Positions 9,614-15,477 of a stretch of 64,000 nucleotides of DNA are shown here, in pieces. The stretch lies in sequence record NZ_AP019754.1. One strand, 5' to 3'. The DNA comes from a plasmid. Position numbers and translations under genes: made by a program. The first letter of the stretch is position 1, and every line of letters begins with the position of its first letter. The notes beneath the pieces are model-generated. The model made no database searches, was not told where the DNA came from, and was given only the letters and a program-made list of their open reading frames with translations.

Positions 9614-10294
9614 TTACGCTTTCAGCGAGGCGCCGCCGCAGATAACCAGTTCCTGGCCCGTAATGGCTGCGGCGGATTCGCTAAGTAGATAACCCACTAG
9701 CGAGGCGACTTCTTCTGGTTGAATGAGCCGGCCAATCGGCGGAACCATAGGGGCCGACGACGTACGTTCAGGTCGGGTGAGCATGGGGGTTTCGGTCGCA
9801 CCAGGCGCAACAACGTTAACAGTGATGTTACGCGGTGCCAGCTCCATTCCCCACGAGCGAACCATGCCAACCAGCGCCGCTTTGGTTGCAGCGTACTGCG
9901 AGCGGTTGGCGGCACCTCGCGACGTGCGGCTACCTATAATGACAATCCTACTGCCAGGCTGCATCATCGGCACAAAGTGGTTCACCAGGACTTCCGCCGC
10001 TTGAACGTGCAACGACCACAGGCGCGCGCCGGCAGCGCTATCAAGTTCGCCTAACGGGGCGGCCACCATCATCCCTGCTGCATGTATCAACGCATCCGGG
10101 GTACCGAGTGTGCTGATAACCGACTTAAGCTGTTCCGCATCCGTTAAATCCACGGCAACCCAGTTAAGGTTCGGTGAGGCCATCTCTCCCTGGGTTCTGC
10201 TAAGTCCCGTCACTTTCCAGCCGTTATTCAGCAGATGATGGGTGATGGCCTGGCCGATACCGGAACTGTATCCCGTGACGATAGCGTGACGCAT
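9614..10294 (-). CDS. SDR-family oxidoreductase (last gene of six-gene operon)
   Basis: 226 aa. TGYSSGIG Rossmann motif. YAATK-type catalytic region. Confidence 0.75.
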   Translation of the reverse strand: MRHAIVTGYSSGIGQAITHHLLNNGWKVTGLSRTQGEMASPNLNWVAVDLTDAEQLKSVISTLGTPDALIHAAGMMVAAPLGELDSAAGARLWSLHVQAAEVLVNHFVPMMQPGSRIVIIGSRTSRGAANRSQYAATKAALVGMVRSWGMELAPRNITVNVVAPGATETPMLTRPERTSSAPMVPPIGRLIQPEEVASLVGYLLSESAAAITGQELVICGGASLKA

Positions 10295-10295
10295 C

Positions 10296-10766
10296 TCAGT
10301 CTCCTAACATAGATTTTGGCACTTTAAACACCGCTTTGCGGACCGTCATCGGTTCGTTGACCGCGCACAGCGCCTGATGAGGCTCACCGGGCAGAAATAC
10401 CGCAAAGTCCCCTTTGCGTAGCGTTATGCTCACGGGCCATTCGCGGGGGCGGGTGATGAACAGATCGGGTTTCTTCTCTTCATCATCCGTCTTCGCGACG
10501 GACTGCGTACCGGCGTTGATAATCTCTTCGCCTTCCAGCATCACCTGAATATCCGCCCAAAGATGGTGATATTCGGTGTGCCGTAACGCGGCATCTTCGG
10601 TAGTGGCCTGCTGAATATTACAAAACCACGCAACATTTTCTGGCTGCCATTTACCGATATCTTTTGCTGCCAGTGCCTCAAACGTGCATGAGGGTAAACG
10701 GAGCAGGGCCAGTAAGGGTTCAGGTAATCCTGCCAGGGCCAGGTTGTTCAGGTTTCCAACAATCAT
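10296..10766 (-). CDS. YhcH/YjgK/YiaL (NanQ/EbgC-like) family protein
   Basis: 156 aa. Length and sequence recall DUF386/YhcH proteins. Sits 1 nt downstream of the SDR gene. Confidence 0.55.
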
Positions 10767-10770
10767 CAGA

Positions 10771-11928
10771 TTACTCCTTCACCCACTCAGGCGTGACGCG
10801 CGCGTATTTAATTGCCTGACGAAAATAGGTATAAGCGATATGCAAAGTCCCCCCAGCATCCTGCTTGATGCTGGGATAGGAAAATTCACGGTTGCGTTTT
10901 TCCTGAGAGTTATTGGTCATACAGTATCCATCGCCTTCATCGAGGTTTTTCTGCCATGGCCAGGTCTTGCCCCCATCCGCTGAAATAGCCACGGTCATGG
11001 GCGCGCGCGGTGCCCCCCAGAATGCGGTACGGCCTGTCGTTTCCGGCTCTTTTCTGCCATCACCGTCATCGATCTCATCATATAGAGAGGCACGACGTTC
11101 TGTGGCCCCGGCCGCACTCATATTGTTAAATACCAGCGCCAGCTCGCCGCTGTGCAGCGTCGTCACCTGAATAGAAGAGTTGTTGTTAGGTAAAACAGTG
11201 GCCTCGGGCGATGACCAGGTTTCTCCGCCATCGGTGGAGCGGCTCAGATAGATATGATCCGCCCAGCGGCTGCGGTAAAGGGCAACCAGCGAACCATCCT
11301 GCAAGGCGGTGATATTCATGTGTACACACCCCAGGCTGTCTGGCACGACCACATCTCGCCAGCTTTTGCCCTGATCAGACGAAATTTTCACCGCGCTGAT
11401 ATCATCATTACCTACCCATTTTTCACCTGGCTGGGTACGGCAGTAGAACACGGGCAGTAACCAGTTACCGTTATCCAGAACGGTAATGGGCTGACGGATA
11501 AAGGTGCCTGGCTTATCTAACAGCGTATCGATCGGGCCCCAGGTTTGGCCAAGATCGCTGGACTGGCGGTATCGGACAATCGCCGTATCCTGATTGCCGG
11601 AGATCTGCGCCGTCCACAATAGCCAGAGAACATTATTGGGCGCGAGAAACAGCACAGGGTTTTGCTCAGACCGCGTGGGATCGTCAGACAGTTTGACGGC
11701 TTCGCTCCAGGTGTCAGCGCCTGCCGGCAAGCGAGAGCACCAGACGGAGATATCGGCAATCCCTTCCTGTGTTCCGCCAAACCAGACGCAGAGCAGGGAA
11801 CCGTCCTGCAGTGGCAAAATATTGGCGGCGTGGTTTTGCGGGCATGACGAAGGCAACATTGCCGTCATTACTCGGCCATCTTTTTCCCATGGCTTCAGAT
11901 GGCCATCACGAATTACGGTTACGGTCAT
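10771..11928 (-). CDS. Cytoplasmic BNR-repeat sialidase-like (GH33-like) protein
   Basis: Four Asp-box BNR motifs ([32 protein letters not shown]). No signal peptide. True start at M9 (MTVTVIRDG) with perfect AAGGAG RBS, 2 nt after the SSS transporter stop. Confidence 0.7.
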
Positions 11929-13351: not shown

Positions 13352-13427
13352 TATAGCCTCAGATATAACAAGATAAATTCGGGGAGCACAGCGACTCCCT
13401 GTCTTTACGTTTTATTACTTCTTATTA

Positions 13428-14312
13428 TCATTTCAGGTACAGGTTGATGATTCTGCGGATTTCATCTTCCTGTGCGGTATCAAAGTGAACGGCATAACGG
13501 CTTTCGCCCACGTTATAACCTAAAATCTGCAACGCTTTTTTAACTGCTGCGGGTGAAAATGCCACTTTATAAAGGTCTGTGCGTAAGCCCGTGACCTGCT
13601 CTTGCGCCAGCCGCGATCCTTCACGATCTCCGGCATGGAAGCGAGACCAGATAGCATTGATTTGACGCGGCGCGACGTTAGCCAGGCCTGAAATACAGGC
13701 TGAGCATCCCTCGACATAGCCCTGGTGAATCAGTGAGTCCGGACCGTTCAGAACATCGAAGTCTTTACTGTCCTTAACGGCATCCAGATAACCTTTCAGG
13801 CTTTCATAGCTTCCGGCGCTGTCTTTCACGCCAATAATATTCGGGTGTTCAGCAAGTGTGCGGGCCGTTTGTGGCTCGATCGTATTACCCGTCCTGGCCG
13901 GAATGTTATACAAAAACACCGGAACGGAAAGGGCATCCGCAATGGCCGTGTAATGATGAATGAGTTCGCGCTGATTAAGCGGCACAAAATAAGGCGTAAT
14001 CACCGAAACTGCGTCCACGCCCAGTTTTTCGATTTGTTTGCCCAGCCGAATGGTTTCGCGGGTGGAAATCTCACCAATATGCGCCACAACGTTTCCGCGC
14101 CCCGATACTTCATTAACACAGGTTTCAGTAACAGTGAGTTTCTCTTTCTCATTAAGGACAAAAAACTCACCGTTAGTGCCGCCACAGAAAATACCGTTGC
14201 CCGCATTAAGTTGGCGAATAACCTGACGCTTAAGTTCATCAAGGTTAAGTCCGCCTTCTTTATCAAAAGGGGTAACAATAGCTGTTAACACACCTTCAAT
14301 TTTCTTACGCAT
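13428..14312 (-). CDS. DapA/N-acetylneuraminate lyase-family (class I aldolase) protein
   Basis: Start at MRKKIEGVLTAIVTPF with AAGGAG RBS. The track ORF extends 20 codons upstream. GTNGEF motif typical of the DHDPS/NAL family. Confidence 0.75.
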   Translation of the reverse strand: MRKKIEGVLTAIVTPFDKEGGLNLDELKRQVIRQLNAGNGIFCGGTNGEFFVLNEKEKLTVTETCVNEVSGRGNVVAHIGEISTRETIRLGKQIEKLGVDAVSVITPYFVPLNQRELIHHYTAIADALSVPVFLYNIPARTGNTIEPQTARTLAEHPNIIGVKDSAGSYESLKGYLDAVKDSKDFDVLNGPDSLIHQGYVEGCSACISGLANVAPRQINAIWSRFHAGDREGSRLAQEQVTGLRTDLYKVAFSPAAVKKALQILGYNVGESRYAVHFDTAQEDEIRRIINLYLK

Positions 14313-14331
14313 TACCCACTCCTTTTTTAAA

Positions 14332-15477
14332 TTAAATCCTGGGGAAAAGTGTCCGGTAAATTGCAGCCACATCTTGATGGCTGACTACGCAAGGCGAATT
14401 GCTCATCAATCGCTTCACGTTCAGAGCCGCTTCACTGAGGGAATCGATATCATCGGATGGCACACCCAGGGCTTCCAGGTTATCAGGCAGGTTGAGGCGT
14501 TTGACTAATTTGGCCAGATAGTCAACCAGCGCATGTGATTTCTCTTCCTGACTCAGCGTGGTATCGGCTTCCGGGATCAGATCCCAGACGTTGGCAAATT
14601 TCTCCACCGCAAAGGGCCGCACTACTTTCATGCAGGGCGCCAGCAGAATGGCGTTAGCGACACCGTGAGGCAGATGCCAGGTACCGCCTAAGGGATAGGA
14701 CAGGGCATGAACAAGATGGGTACCGGCATGGGCAATGGCTGCACCGCCATAATAAGAGGCCCACAGCATTTCCAGCTTGGCTGTCAGGTTATGCGGTTCA
14801 TTAACGGAGGTTTCCAGATGACGGAATAATTTATACAACCCCATGAGTGCAACATTGTCACCGACAGGATTCGAAATCGTTGCGGTGTAGCACTCAAGTA
14901 AATGGCACAGCGCATCAATTCCCGTTGATGAGGCGATATGCGCTGGCATGCTGGTTGTCAGCTCAGGTATCAGGGCAACATAATCTGGCAGCATGACAGG
15001 CGAAATAATACCGACTTTGGTATTTTGCTCGGGAATGGCCAGAATGGCATTTGGGGTCGATTCCGATCCTGTGCCCGCAGTAGAAGGAATGAGCAGCGAC
15101 GGCAAGCGCGCTTCAATTTTCTGACCGTCCAGCAGAGCCTTGAGCGAAGGACGGGACGCATGGCATAAAACCGAGAGGAGCTTCGCCACATCCAACACGC
15201 TTCCGCCACCAACACCCACGACCAAATCATAGGCCTTACCTGCCGTGCGCGTCAGCACTGTTTCAACGTCAGTATGCGTCGGCTCTGCCGGAACATCGTC
15301 AATGAGCTCTACCTGACGAGCATCCTGCCCCAGTAGCGTGAGGATCTGCGCTGTTGCCGGCAAATTCACAATGTTTTTATCTGTTAAAACCAGCAGTCGT
15401 TTTCTGCCCGCCACGACGGGCGCCAGTGCGTTTATCGCATGAGAACCGCTTAATATCGTGCTGTTAATTATGGCCAC
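14332..15477 (-). CDS. Iron-containing (group III) alcohol dehydrogenase family protein
   Basis: 381 aa. GGGSVLD and metal-binding His motifs of Fe-ADH. First gene of the minus-strand operon. Confidence 0.75.
   Translation of the reverse strand: MAIINSTILSGSHAINALAPVVAGRKRLLVLTDKNIVNLPATAQILTLLGQDARQVELIDDVPAEPTHTDVETVLTRTAGKAYDLVVGVGGGSVLDVAKLLSVLCHASRPSLKALLDGQKIEARLPSLLIPSTAGTGSESTPNAILAIPEQNTKVGIISPVMLPDYVALIPELTTSMPAHIASSTGIDALCHLLECYTATISNPVGDNVALMGLYKLFRHLETSVNEPHNLTAKLEMLWASYYGGAAIAHAGTHLVHALSYPLGGTWHLPHGVANAILLAPCMKVVRPFAVEKFANVWDLIPEADTTLSQEEKSHALVDYLAKLVKRLNLPDNLEALGVPSDDIDSLSEAALNVKRLMSNSPCVVSHQDVAAIYRTLFPRI

Follow-up and report, generated by a model that had tools for sequence, protein, structure and literature searches.

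Which compound is broken down by a cluster of six genes whose products include a class I aldolase, a ring opener of the YhcH type and a sialidase-fold protein of the cytoplasm is the question raised by a plasmid of Pantoea ananatis, of which a window of 64,000 nucleotides was analysed (NZ_AP019754.1). The reading favoured here, with a probability of roughly one half, is that the locus serves the catabolism of an imported, ring-forming C7 3-deoxy-2-ulosonic acid and ends in D-threonate. An earlier note had described a non-canonical catabolic cluster of six minus-strand genes between positions 9614 and 15477 that lacks nanE, nanK and nanR, and this description holds; all six ORFs are present where it placed them and all have strong Pfam assignments. 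Two of its starts lay too far upstream, and the position of the ribosome-binding sites together with the length of homologues moves that of the lyase from 14372 to 14312 (homologues of 293-294 aa) and that of the BNR gene from 11952 to 11928 (385 aa). The perfect AAGGAG motifs that it reported are found upstream of the lyase, BNR and YhcH starts, with TAGGAG at the SDR gene and GGGGAG at the Fe-ADH gene. The intergenic gaps measure 1-19 nt with the exception of 76 nt between the lyase and SSS genes, and the operon ends after the SDR gene at a bidirectional terminator-like hairpin (9570-9593), whose 9-bp stem has a T run after it on either strand.

The unit outruns these six genes: the catabolic locus is a conserved divergent one, and they make up its larger arm. 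A D-threonate kinase and dehydrogenase pair, partly deleted here, lies outside the coordinates of the earlier gene list and was missed by it. On the plus strand, pdxA2 (15943-16929) is predicted by a curated HMM to encode the decarboxylating D-threonate-4-phosphate dehydrogenase that yields DHAP and CO2 (NF002891, 667 bits, cut-off 583). It shares 74% identity with the copy of E. coli 536 and has a dN/dS of 0.028 in the Pantoea comparison given below, and a terminator-like hairpin lies at 16964-16985. It is preceded by a decayed 3' remnant of dtnK (15750-15938, plus strand), which comprises the last ~70 codons of a DUF1537 D-threonate kinase whose other ~340 codons are deleted. The remnant was found by tblastn; it matches the DtnK of E. 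coli 536 (residues 342-408) with 49% identity and a Pantoea DtnK with 36% identity across 70 aa, with indels relative to other Pantoea. An intact kinase occupies this position in 60 of 80 loci, and those of sister Enterobacterales pass the D-threonate kinase equivalog (scores of 535-613, cut-off 450), by which they are assigned as probable DtnK proteins. The Firmicute kinases and PdxA proteins score under the D-threonate cut-offs, and the C4 acid could therefore differ in these organisms. Intact dtnK was not found on P. ananatis plasmids, and a Pantoea DtnK has no relative named P. ananatis among its 120 closest. The DeoR gene is likewise gone from the P. ananatis plasmid locus. Because kinase and regulator are lost, either the phosphorylation of D-threonate and the PdxA2 step would need a kinase encoded elsewhere or the route ends at D-threonate.

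Between the two arms lies a predicted divergent promoter/operator region (15538-15613, core 15571-15613: TTGATCTTGCTCACATATAATCGATTGTGATTGAATATAATCA), which is near-invariant across Pantoea lineages whose genes have a dS above 1. A scan of 46 loci located the operator core TGATTATATTCAATCAYNNTTGATTATATGTGAGCAAGATCAA ahead of the Fe-ADH gene in 45, all except locus L050.

A survey of 80 genome loci, collected by searching with the BNR protein, places nine gene families in the locus: BNR (80), SDR (66), SSS (65), lyase and Fe-ADH (64 each), PdxA2 (61), DUF1537 kinase (60), DeoR (56) and YhcH (48). These nine alone are conserved, and neither nanE, nanK nor nagA/B is conserved near the locus in the 80 loci. 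The same families occur together in 60-66 of the 80 related loci, a combination not due to chance. In Pelosinus, Lucifera and the Bacillus pumilus group all nine families lie on a single strand, and BNR orthologues of only 47% and 43% identity still have genes for Fe-ADH, DHDPS, kinase and PdxA as neighbours, uptake there being by an ABC or a TRAP system; BNR homologues of 37% identity or less were not found beside these genes. Some Pantoea and Bradyrhizobium loci hold SSS-BNR-(YhcH)-SDR only, with the lyase arm not nearby. The six-gene arm is thus very probably linked to the D-threonate pathway. Most hosts live with plants or degrade pectin, among them Pectobacterium, Dickeya, Erwinia, Pantoea, Rahnella, Kosakonia, the B. 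pumilus group, Burkholderia and Bradyrhizobium. Genes of the GH28 pectinase family lie within 10 kb in 9 of the 80 loci, Bacillus included. The E. coli B2 strains, which carry a variant with an SLC13 carrier, are no obvious pectin users.

The lyase (13428-14312, minus strand) is a class I (Schiff-base) pyruvate aldolase of the DHDPS/NAL family (PF00701, E 1e-62), as had been proposed, and is closer to DapA than to NanA. It misses the NCBIfam equivalogs of both DapA (187.6 bits, cut-off 206) and NanA (146.7 bits, cut-off 281), both of its NanA equivalog scores being far under the cut-offs, and its nearest HMM families are DapA and, at 143 bits, HpaI-NOT-DapA. In a comparison of 61 orthologues with provisional DapA and NanA reference sequences, the equivalents of Lys161 and Tyr133 (DapA numbering) are present in all 61 and that of Arg138 in 58, the other three having Lys where NanA has Leu; Asn replaces Thr45 and Phe replaces Tyr107 throughout. 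In DHDPS, Arg138 binds the distal carboxylate of aspartate semialdehyde, a C4 aldehyde-acid, and the C3 unit of enzymes of this family is pyruvate.

The iron-type alcohol dehydrogenase (Fe-ADH; 14332-15477, minus strand; PF00465 and PF25137, E 1e-35 to 1e-41) has lactaldehyde reductase, ErcA and 4-hydroxybutyrate dehydrogenase as top NCBIfam matches, all far under their cut-offs, and evolves with a dN/dS of 0.05. Its proposed role is the NAD(P)H-dependent reduction to D-threonate of the C4 aldehyde-acid released by the lyase; that the aldehyde is handled by Fe-ADH, with no kinase/epimerase pair, agrees with the earlier note. The SDR and YhcH proteins are accessory to the pathway. The former is a short classical oxidoreductase of 226 aa (9614-10294, minus strand; PF13561 and PF00106, E 6e-39) whose gene is next to those of BNR and YhcH in 66 of the 80 loci. 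Neither the ABC variant nor the SLC13 variant of E. coli/Klebsiella includes it, and the sole SDR of the Bacillus loci is ~27% identical and encoded some 5 kb away on the opposite strand. The YhcH/DUF386 protein (10296-10766, minus strand) is above the cut-offs of PF04074 and TIGR00022 (DUF386 E 1.6e-27) and reaches 96 bits against the NanQ equivalog, under the cut-off of 160. E. coli YhcH has been shown to supply NanA with open-form Neu5Ac (PMC8141875). By analogy the protein is proposed to be an anomerase or 'openase' handing an open-chain keto acid to the lyase, and the presence of such an 'openase' would point to a ring-forming substrate (PMC8141875).

Uptake is assigned to a sodium:solute symporter family (SSS) importer (11930-13351, minus strand; PF00474, E 3e-26). 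The carrier had been called SiaT-type, which is not borne out: among proteins of solved structure it comes nearest to SSS carriers for choline and glucose (E ~1e-8), with no sialic acid transporter below E 0.001, and it is thus not close to the solved sialic acid SSS carrier. The SSS carrier is an interchangeable module of the locus, replaced in other lineages by SLC13/CitMHS plus TerC, TRAP, ABC or MFS systems. The E. coli and Klebsiella carrier is of the SLC13/CitMHS di/tricarboxylate type, and the TRAP and ACS-type MFS carriers of other variants are acid transporters.

The BNR protein (10771-11928, minus strand; 385 aa) is a six-bladed sialidase-fold protein (BNR_2/COG4692; PF13088, E 6.5e-65) in which the four Asp-boxes previously noted can be read straight from the translation. 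Its N-terminus contains no hydrophobic signal-like stretch, in keeping with the cytoplasmic location claimed for it. The active site consists of H33, E55, H203, R219, R308 and Y351. Judged by the residues of a sialidase, it gives a divided picture: the Tyr nucleophile and two of three Arg of GH33 are kept, whereas Arg1 is replaced by His33, the Glu partner of the Tyr by His203 and the acid/base Asp by Glu55, replacements that are family-wide among these BNR proteins.

From these observations we infer an order of steps, a C7 chain length, a substrate and a reaction for the BNR protein. The SSS carrier would import the acid or a small conjugate, and the sialidase-fold protein would act on a precursor (a ketoside, an anhydro or an unsaturated form) to free or generate the ulosonic acid. 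YhcH would open the pyranose ring, and the DHDPS-family aldolase would yield pyruvate and 2,3-dihydroxy-4-oxobutanoate ('D-threuronate', a C4 aldehyde-acid), which Fe-ADH would reduce to D-threonate. DtnK would phosphorylate D-threonate, and PdxA2 would convert 4-phospho-D-threonate to DHAP and CO2. The DeoR repressor would normally control both arms via the conserved operator. The chain length follows from adding the C3 of pyruvate to the C4 aldehyde called for by the D-threonate kinase/D-threonate-4-phosphate dehydrogenase pair, and cleavage of a C7 ulosonic acid to pyruvate and a C4 unit is slightly favoured. The same logic, one carbon shorter, operates in the glucarate/galactarate pathway (GarL, GarR, GarK), where a 2-keto-3-deoxy diacid is cleaved to pyruvate and an aldehyde-acid that is reduced to a hydroxy acid and phosphorylated. 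The enzymes differ: the aldolase here is class I and DHDPS-type where GarL is class II and HpcH-type, Fe-ADH stands in place of the beta-hydroxyacid dehydrogenase GarR (tartronate-semialdehyde reductase) and DUF1537 in place of the glycerate kinase GarK, and a decarboxylating PdxA2 step and the BNR/YhcH front end are additional.

The DapA-like lyase with its Arg138 equivalent, together with the di/tricarboxylate and acid carriers, hints at a diacid. The best, though tentative, candidate is 3-deoxy-D-lyxo-heptulosaric acid (Dha), a sugar known chiefly from pectic rhamnogalacturonan II (RG-II). By the authors' own Fischer-projection derivation, C5 and C6 of D-lyxo-Dha give D-threuronate, which is reduced to D-threonate. 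DapA and the DapA-type HpaI aldolases, which share the Schiff-base Lys, Tyr133 and Arg138 equivalents, join pyruvate to or cleave it from aspartate semialdehyde and succinic semialdehyde, and like Dha their substrates or products are C7 dicarboxylates; unlike these enzymes, the lyase has Asn for Thr45 and Phe for Tyr107, is under both equivalog cut-offs and stands in a catabolic, sugar-acid-linked context. The ketosidic bond of Dha in RG-II is labile to heat and acid, and side chain D is therefore easily released. The closest known systems include a Dha-hydrolase, BT1020 (GH143), from the loci with which Bacteroides thetaiotaomicron utilises RG-II. Dha as substrate does not account for the BNR protein, since a free monosaccharide needs no glycosidase. 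It is rather improbable, within the same pathway, that this protein is not a glycosidase and instead performs glycal hydration, anhydro or lactone opening or anomer selection on a monosaccharide derivative, analogous to the salvage of 2,7-anhydro-Neu5Ac and Neu5Ac2en. Its cytoplasmic location, the family-wide Glu/His/His replacements, which suggest altered chemistry, the SSS, SLC13/CitMHS and TRAP carriers, which usually carry monosaccharide-sized acids, and the slow hydration of Neu5Ac2en by sialidases would fit such a role. However, the Tyr nucleophile and two Arg are kept as in retaining ketosidases, and one variant combines an esterase with an ABC system of the SBP_bac_5 type, which frequently transports di- or oligomers.

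The earlier interpretation of a sialic-acid-like 3-deoxy-2-ulosonic acid survives in its general form, while a C4 aldehyde and a C7 substrate argue against Neu5Ac and KDN (C9) and Kdo (C8). A variant sialic, nonulosonic or octulosonic route, in which the BNR protein is a cytoplasmic sialidase acting on one of these acids or on an anhydro or oxidised sialoside and Fe-ADH or SDR reduces or oxidises the aldehyde (a hexose or pentose) from the lyase, is accordingly quite unlikely. The locus resembles E. coli nan (NanT, NanA, NanK, NanE, NanQ/YhcH, with YjhC/NanOx for anhydro forms) in that an acidic ulosonic sugar would be imported and its open chain handed by a YhcH-type protein to a pyruvate-releasing class I aldolase of the NAL/DHDPS family, and in having an associated sialidase-fold protein. 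These shared families, including the Asp-boxes, Tyr and two Arg of the BNR protein and an SSS carrier from the family of SiaT, are what speaks for this route. Against it, Neu5Ac, KDN and Kdo would give C6, C6 and C5 aldehydes with no route to D-threonate; linkage of the cluster to a C4-acid kinase and PdxA2 is tight and extends over several phyla; lyase, YhcH and carrier fall under the Nan equivalog thresholds, and the lyase has Arg at the DHDPS R138 position; in the cytoplasmic BNR protein the Arg1, Glu-partner and acid/base residues of GH33 are replaced; nanE, nanK and nagA/B are not conserved nearby; and the hosts are chiefly plant and soil bacteria, not those of sialic-acid niches. A further difference from nan is that the aldehyde would be reduced by Fe-ADH and its product handed to kinase and PdxA2.

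An unlikely further substrate is a C7 mono-acid (3-deoxy-heptulosonate, e.g. DAH, or a dehydrated heptonate), from which the lyase would release pyruvate and a neutral tetrose; the SDR would oxidise the tetrose lactol via tetronolactone to threonate and Fe-ADH would have a side role. SDRs are commonly sugar 1-dehydrogenases, most loci have both SSS and SDR, the variant with the dicarboxylate-type SLC13 carrier being without SDR, and an enolase-superfamily dehydratase follows the SDR gene in two Acetobacteraceae loci. Yet Fe-ADH belongs to the invariant core and the SDR, absent or distant in three variants, does not; the lyase retains the carboxylate-binding Arg; and the kinases match the D-threonate equivalog, while the products expected from DAH are D-erythrose and D-erythronate. 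It is very unlikely that the two arms are unrelated neighbours, the six genes making pyruvate and an aldehyde detoxified to an alcohol and pdxA2/dtnK serving free D-threonate. D-threonate catabolism by DtnK (DUF1537) and PdxA2 is covered by work cited in passages of PMC10971088 and PMC9997740. The system here is like it in that PdxA2 of the window and the sister-locus kinases pass the NCBI equivalogs and intact loci have a DeoR-type regulator. In Salmonella, the characterised pair is accompanied by a carrier that takes up free D-threonate, whereas the pair here, of which the window has the kinase only as a remnant, is joined to an arm proposed to make D-threonate inside the cell, and the locus contains no dedicated threonate transporter. 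That Salmonella uses the pair for free D-threonate, reportedly the finding of Zhang and colleagues in PNAS in 2016, would suit independent arms, as would several Pantoea loci with SSS-BNR-SDR but no lyase arm or threonate genes, and the loss of kinase and regulator here while the six genes remain under selection. Nevertheless the arms occur together in ~60 of 80 loci in Gamma-, Beta- and Alphaproteobacteria and Firmicutes, with kinase and PdxA always kept while gene order is reshuffled, single-strand operons included, and also beside the BNR orthologues of 43-47% identity; one conserved operator is common to both arms.

Compared with a Pantoea lineage likewise without the kinase, six of seven genes have a dN/dS of 0.03-0.07, the lyase being left out because its gene lengths differ, and these low ratios indicate that the function of the locus has probably been retained on this plasmid. 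Beyond it, the nine-gene locus is a widespread and unstudied one, carried by plant- and gut-associated bacteria.

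The Fe-ADH gene (14332-15477), the gene of a DHDPS/NAL family lyase (ORF 13428-14372) and those of a sodium:solute symporter (SSS, 11930-13351), a BNR_2 protein (ORF 10771-11952, E 6.5e-65), a DUF386/YhcH protein (10296-10766) and an SDR (9614-10294) are all present on the minus strand of the window as the earlier note described them, and their Pfam families are unambiguous. Ribosome-binding site positions and homologue lengths place the starts of the lyase and BNR genes at 14312 and 11928, and AAGGAG motifs are seen ahead of the lyase, BNR and YhcH starts. The genes are packed with gaps of 1-19 nt and one exception of 76 nt, and at the operon end lies a hairpin (9570-9593) that is followed by a T run on either strand. 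The convergent cupin gene beyond it (9027-9428) is not conserved alongside the locus. The six genes are an incomplete account of the locus, which extends further to a block resembling an operator, to a remnant of a DUF1537 D-threonate kinase gene (dtnK, 15750-15938) and to pdxA2 (15943-16929), which is divergent from the Fe-ADH gene and matches a curated NCBI equivalog. The window is 99.5% identical to a large Pantoea ananatis plasmid (pEA320 and relatives), and the RefSeq annotation of pEA320-type plasmids holds the same genes including one called 'exo-alpha-sialidase'.

The divergent arm very probably links the locus to D-threonate catabolism. PdxA2 scores 667.2 bits against the D-threonate-4-phosphate dehydrogenase model NF002891 (cut-off 583), and the intact kinases of sister loci score 535-613 bits against the D-threonate kinase equivalog NF047819 (cut-off 450), which is also the best match of the Firmicute kinases, at scores below the cut-off. 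The D-apiose and apionate pathways also use PdxA-like and DUF1537 enzymes; they are ruled out by scores of 41-44 bits against the OiaK model and by the PdxA2 equivalog match. In the window only the 3' end of dtnK is left, its last ~70 codons running into the start of pdxA2. This lineage and a second one in Pantoea (L002-L004) have both lost about 1 kb of dtnK as well as the DeoR gene. Such a deletion would suggest a decaying pseudogene cluster, which is ruled out by intact reading frames in the two lineages and by dN/dS values of 0.03-0.07 between them for six of the seven remaining genes including pdxA2, the lyase gene being left out of this scoring as its lengths differ between the lineages. 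The low values therefore argue that the locus is in use despite the loss of the kinase and DeoR genes. No intact D-threonate kinase was found on the P. ananatis plasmids searched, and none of the 120 relatives closest to a Pantoea DtnK bears the name P. ananatis.

The divergent promoter region is conserved as well. A block at 15538-15613 is almost invariant across Pantoea lineages in which the coding genes themselves have diverged to dS > 1, and in the window and nearly all Enterobacterales loci scanned this region keeps a 43-bp operator-like core, TGATTATATTCAATCAYNNTTGATTATATGTGAGCAAGATCAA, which contains two TATAAT boxes and several copies of TGATTATAT / AATCA elements. On this sequence evidence the block is probably a DeoR operator combined with the divergent promoters, and it is retained in the window although the local DeoR gene is lost.

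A genome scan with the BNR family (14-sequence alignment, one genome per species) returned 80 loci, whose gene content was determined by tblastn searches that used proteins of the window and of E. coli, and then by clustering of all ORFs. Nine gene families and no others are conserved across them: BNR (80/80), SDR (66/80), SSS (65/80), lyase and Fe-ADH (64/80 each), PdxA2 (61/80), the DUF1537 kinase (60/80), DeoR (56/80) and YhcH (48/80), where some of the absences are contig ends. The usual order in Enterobacterales is DeoR-PdxA2-kinase diverging from FeADH-lyase-SSS-BNR-YhcH-SDR, and a single strand carries all of the genes in Pelosinus, Lucifera and the Bacillus pumilus group. Even BNR orthologues of 47% and 43% identity from metagenomes are still encoded next to genes for Fe-ADH, DHDPS, kinase and PdxA, and the uptake genes there are those of an ABC system (together with an esterase and TerC) or of a TRAP system; only at 37% identity or less are the neighbours unrelated. 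By this distribution the stable core consists of BNR protein, lyase, Fe-ADH, kinase and PdxA, the transporter is interchangeable, and YhcH and SDR are accessory.

An E. coli variant is found in strain 536 as an island between nagE and glnS (NC_008253.1 732240-741219) that encodes an SLC13 permease, YhcH, a sialidase family protein, TerC, a DHDPS family protein and Fe-ADH, with dtnK, D-threonate-4-phosphate dehydrogenase and DeoR on the divergent arm. Of the 5426 complete E. coli genomes, 1032 have homologous DNA (~73% identical), and Klebsiella michiganensis shares the layout of E. coli 536. The gene of the TerC-family membrane protein recurs (E. coli 536, L005 and L087) and is found with two transporter variants, SLC13 in E. 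coli and Klebsiella and ABC in a metagenome contig. The E. coli version has been listed as 'GR 6', an uncharacterised sugar-metabolism region with homologues in Sinorhizobium meliloti that have an ABC transporter, in a 2026 PLoS One paper (PMC12928451), and no characterisation of the locus was found in the searchable literature. Reduced loci that consist of SSS-BNR-(YhcH)-SDR only occur in some Pantoea and Bradyrhizobium (L011, L020, L022, L026, L028-L032 and L086); out to a distance of 10 kb they are without genes for the lyase, Fe-ADH, kinase and PdxA2. Of these, L028 and L032 have a GH28 gene and a dmlA/dmlR-like pair upstream, and the Iso_dh and LysR genes ahead of the reduced Pantoea loci are taken as such a pair, unrelated to the locus.

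The locus is found largely in bacteria that live with plants or degrade pectin, and it is common in the plant pathogens Pectobacterium, Dickeya, Pantoea and Erwinia. GH28 genes lie within 10 kb of nine of the 80 loci including those of Bacillus, which adjoin an altronate dehydratase gene as well. On the plasmid itself the surroundings at 21671-24339 are hexuronate/pectin-flavoured, with two genes only a few kb away from the locus, one for a fructuronate reductase (653 bits against NF011611, above its cut-off) and one for an Abhydrolase_3 esterase weakly similar to the pectin acetylesterase PaeX. Two further genes (17673-20449), between pdxA2 and that of the fructuronate reductase, encode a tyrosine phenol-lyase (TIGR02618, 924 bits) and an aromatic amino acid permease; they look like an insertion because L002-L004 are without them at the same position. 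On the other side of the locus the window holds a solitary phage antirepressor gene (7218-7925, KilAC and Rha domains), adjoining a MetQ/NlpA lipoprotein gene (7981-8778), and the gene of a PRK12419-type lumazine synthase (6348-6782, 218 bits, cut-off 160), which presumably gives the host an additional ribH on the plasmid.

A canonical sialic acid pathway is ruled out by the equivalog scores, the missing nanE and nanK, the variant active site of the BNR protein and the link to a C4-acid pathway. The lyase falls short of both NanA models (NF003164, 146.7 against a cut-off of 281; TIGR00683, 117 against 382), and its nearest curated family is DapA (TIGR00674), which it matches better than NanA, yet still below the cut-off (187.6 against 206.15). 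Equivalents of the Schiff-base Lys161 and of Tyr133 are present in all 61 orthologues and Thr44 is also kept; the DapA catalytic set is incomplete, with Thr45 replaced by Asn and Tyr107 by Phe in 61/61. The position of DapA Arg138 is Arg in 58 and Lys in three of the 61 orthologues and Leu142 in NanA, going by the DapA and NanA reference sequences used for the alignment. In DHDPS the substrate aspartate semialdehyde is a C4 aldehyde-acid, and Arg138 holds its carboxylate. YhcH likewise fails the NanQ anomerase equivalog NF040884 (96.3 bits, cut-off 160) and passes only the broad YhcH/YjgK/YiaL family model TIGR00022 (90.8 against 45.5). The E. coli YhcH supplies open-chain Neu5Ac to the aldolase (PMC8141875), which by analogy would imply that the substrate of this locus is mostly cyclic. 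The lack of nanE, nanK and nanR described by the earlier note holds, as NanK, NanE and a NanR/RpiR regulator are missing both from the ORFs on either side of the cluster in the window and from the conserved families of the 80 loci. The idea of a SiaT-type transporter has to be given up, since the solved relatives of the SSS protein include no sialic acid carrier and it is distant from the solved sialic acid symporter.

The BNR protein has the six-bladed beta-propeller with Asp-box repeats of the GH33 catalytic domain, and its fold is closer to GH33 than to BT1020. All four Asp-boxes are readable in its sequence and its N-terminus shows no signal-like hydrophobic stretch, both as described before. 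The canonical sialidase site is a different matter: the Arg triad, which in sialidases binds the C1 carboxylate and is assigned here by profile alignment rather than superposed coordinates, is incomplete, with His33 at the position of the RIP-motif Arg in 36 of 37 family members and the other two Arg aligned and conserved as R219 and R308. The Tyr nucleophile is represented by Tyr351, conserved in 34/37 members and matched to the 9eob Tyr in the alignment. Its Glu partner (TEA or VEA in sialidases) is replaced by His203, or by Gln in distant members, and the Asp acid/base ~25 residues after the RIP Arg by Glu55, still acidic, in 37/37. Because these replacements are conserved family-wide, the protein is best regarded as a predicted sialidase-fold enzyme outside GH33 by the usual catalytic criteria. 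It belongs with the COG4692 'predicted neuraminidases' (4615 relatives at E <= 1e-10), which are called exo-alpha-sialidases in thousands of genomes and, if the reading of the locus is correct, are almost certainly not sialidases. The labels 'exo-alpha-sialidase' and 'sialic acid catabolism' on this cluster are misleading. A free monosaccharide needs no glycosidase, and the BNR step may be that of a ketosidase or of a hydratase/ring-opener of a modified monosaccharide.

DHDPS-family aldolases release pyruvate (C3), which together with the C4 of D-threonate would make the substrate a C7 3-deoxy-2-ulosonic acid, a reading that we favour by a small margin. The specific candidate is 3-deoxy-D-lyxo-heptulosaric acid (Dha), to which we assign a probability of about 0.3. 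Dha carries its hydroxyl groups at C4, C5 and C6 left, left and right in Fischer projection. The aldolase would cut it between C3 and C4 to yield D-threuronate, and Fe-ADH would reduce this 2,3-dihydroxy-4-oxobutanoate to 2,3,4-trihydroxybutanoate. Since the threo C4 chain is C2-symmetric, reduction of the aldehyde gives D-threonate, by this derivation the exact substrate of DtnK. Aldehyde-acid reduction fits Fe-ADH, a core member of the locus whose relatives include 4-hydroxybutyrate dehydrogenase, and the scheme parallels that of the glucarate/galactarate route (GarL, GarR, GarK) with one additional carbon. Other features compatible with a diacid are the DHDPS-like Arg, the SLC13/CitMHS type of carrier in the E. 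coli variant and, in other variants, TRAP and ACS-MFS carriers, which are specific for acids. The case for Dha is indirect and combines the C3+C4 arithmetic, the stereochemical derivation, the carboxylate-binding Arg, the dicarboxylate-type carrier and the plant-associated hosts. Kdo would yield D-arabinose (C5), without a path to D-threonate, and DAH would yield D-erythrose, outside the threo series; both are rejected. What survives of the earlier reading is a non-canonical route for an ulosonic acid that includes reduction of the aldehyde, with sialic acid, KDN and Kdo dropped as its substrate.

Dha, a seven-carbon diacid, is known mainly from the pectic rhamnogalacturonan II (RG-II), for which it is a signature sugar, and we know of no route for its use by microbes; none was found in the searchable literature either. 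Nor do we know of any established natural source of the D-threonate consumed by DtnK and PdxA2. The ketosidic bond of Dha is labile and brief heating frees RG-II side chain D (bioRxiv 10.64898/2026.03.13.711244). All parts of the locus come from known enzyme families, and the pathway is potentially new. It is a tentative possibility that the locus encodes the first Dha catabolic pathway, with a new cytoplasmic sialidase-like enzyme family (His/Glu/His active site), a DapA-like Dha aldolase and a threuronate reductase, and the missing natural source of D-threonate. If true, this would explain the DtnK/PdxA2 pathway in plant pathogens and B2 E. coli and would fill gaps in Dha use, the origin of D-threonate and the function of COG4692. 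As the locus is common in plant pathogens and a related island is present in many E. coli, it may matter for growth in plant tissue and for gut cross-feeding on dietary pectin.
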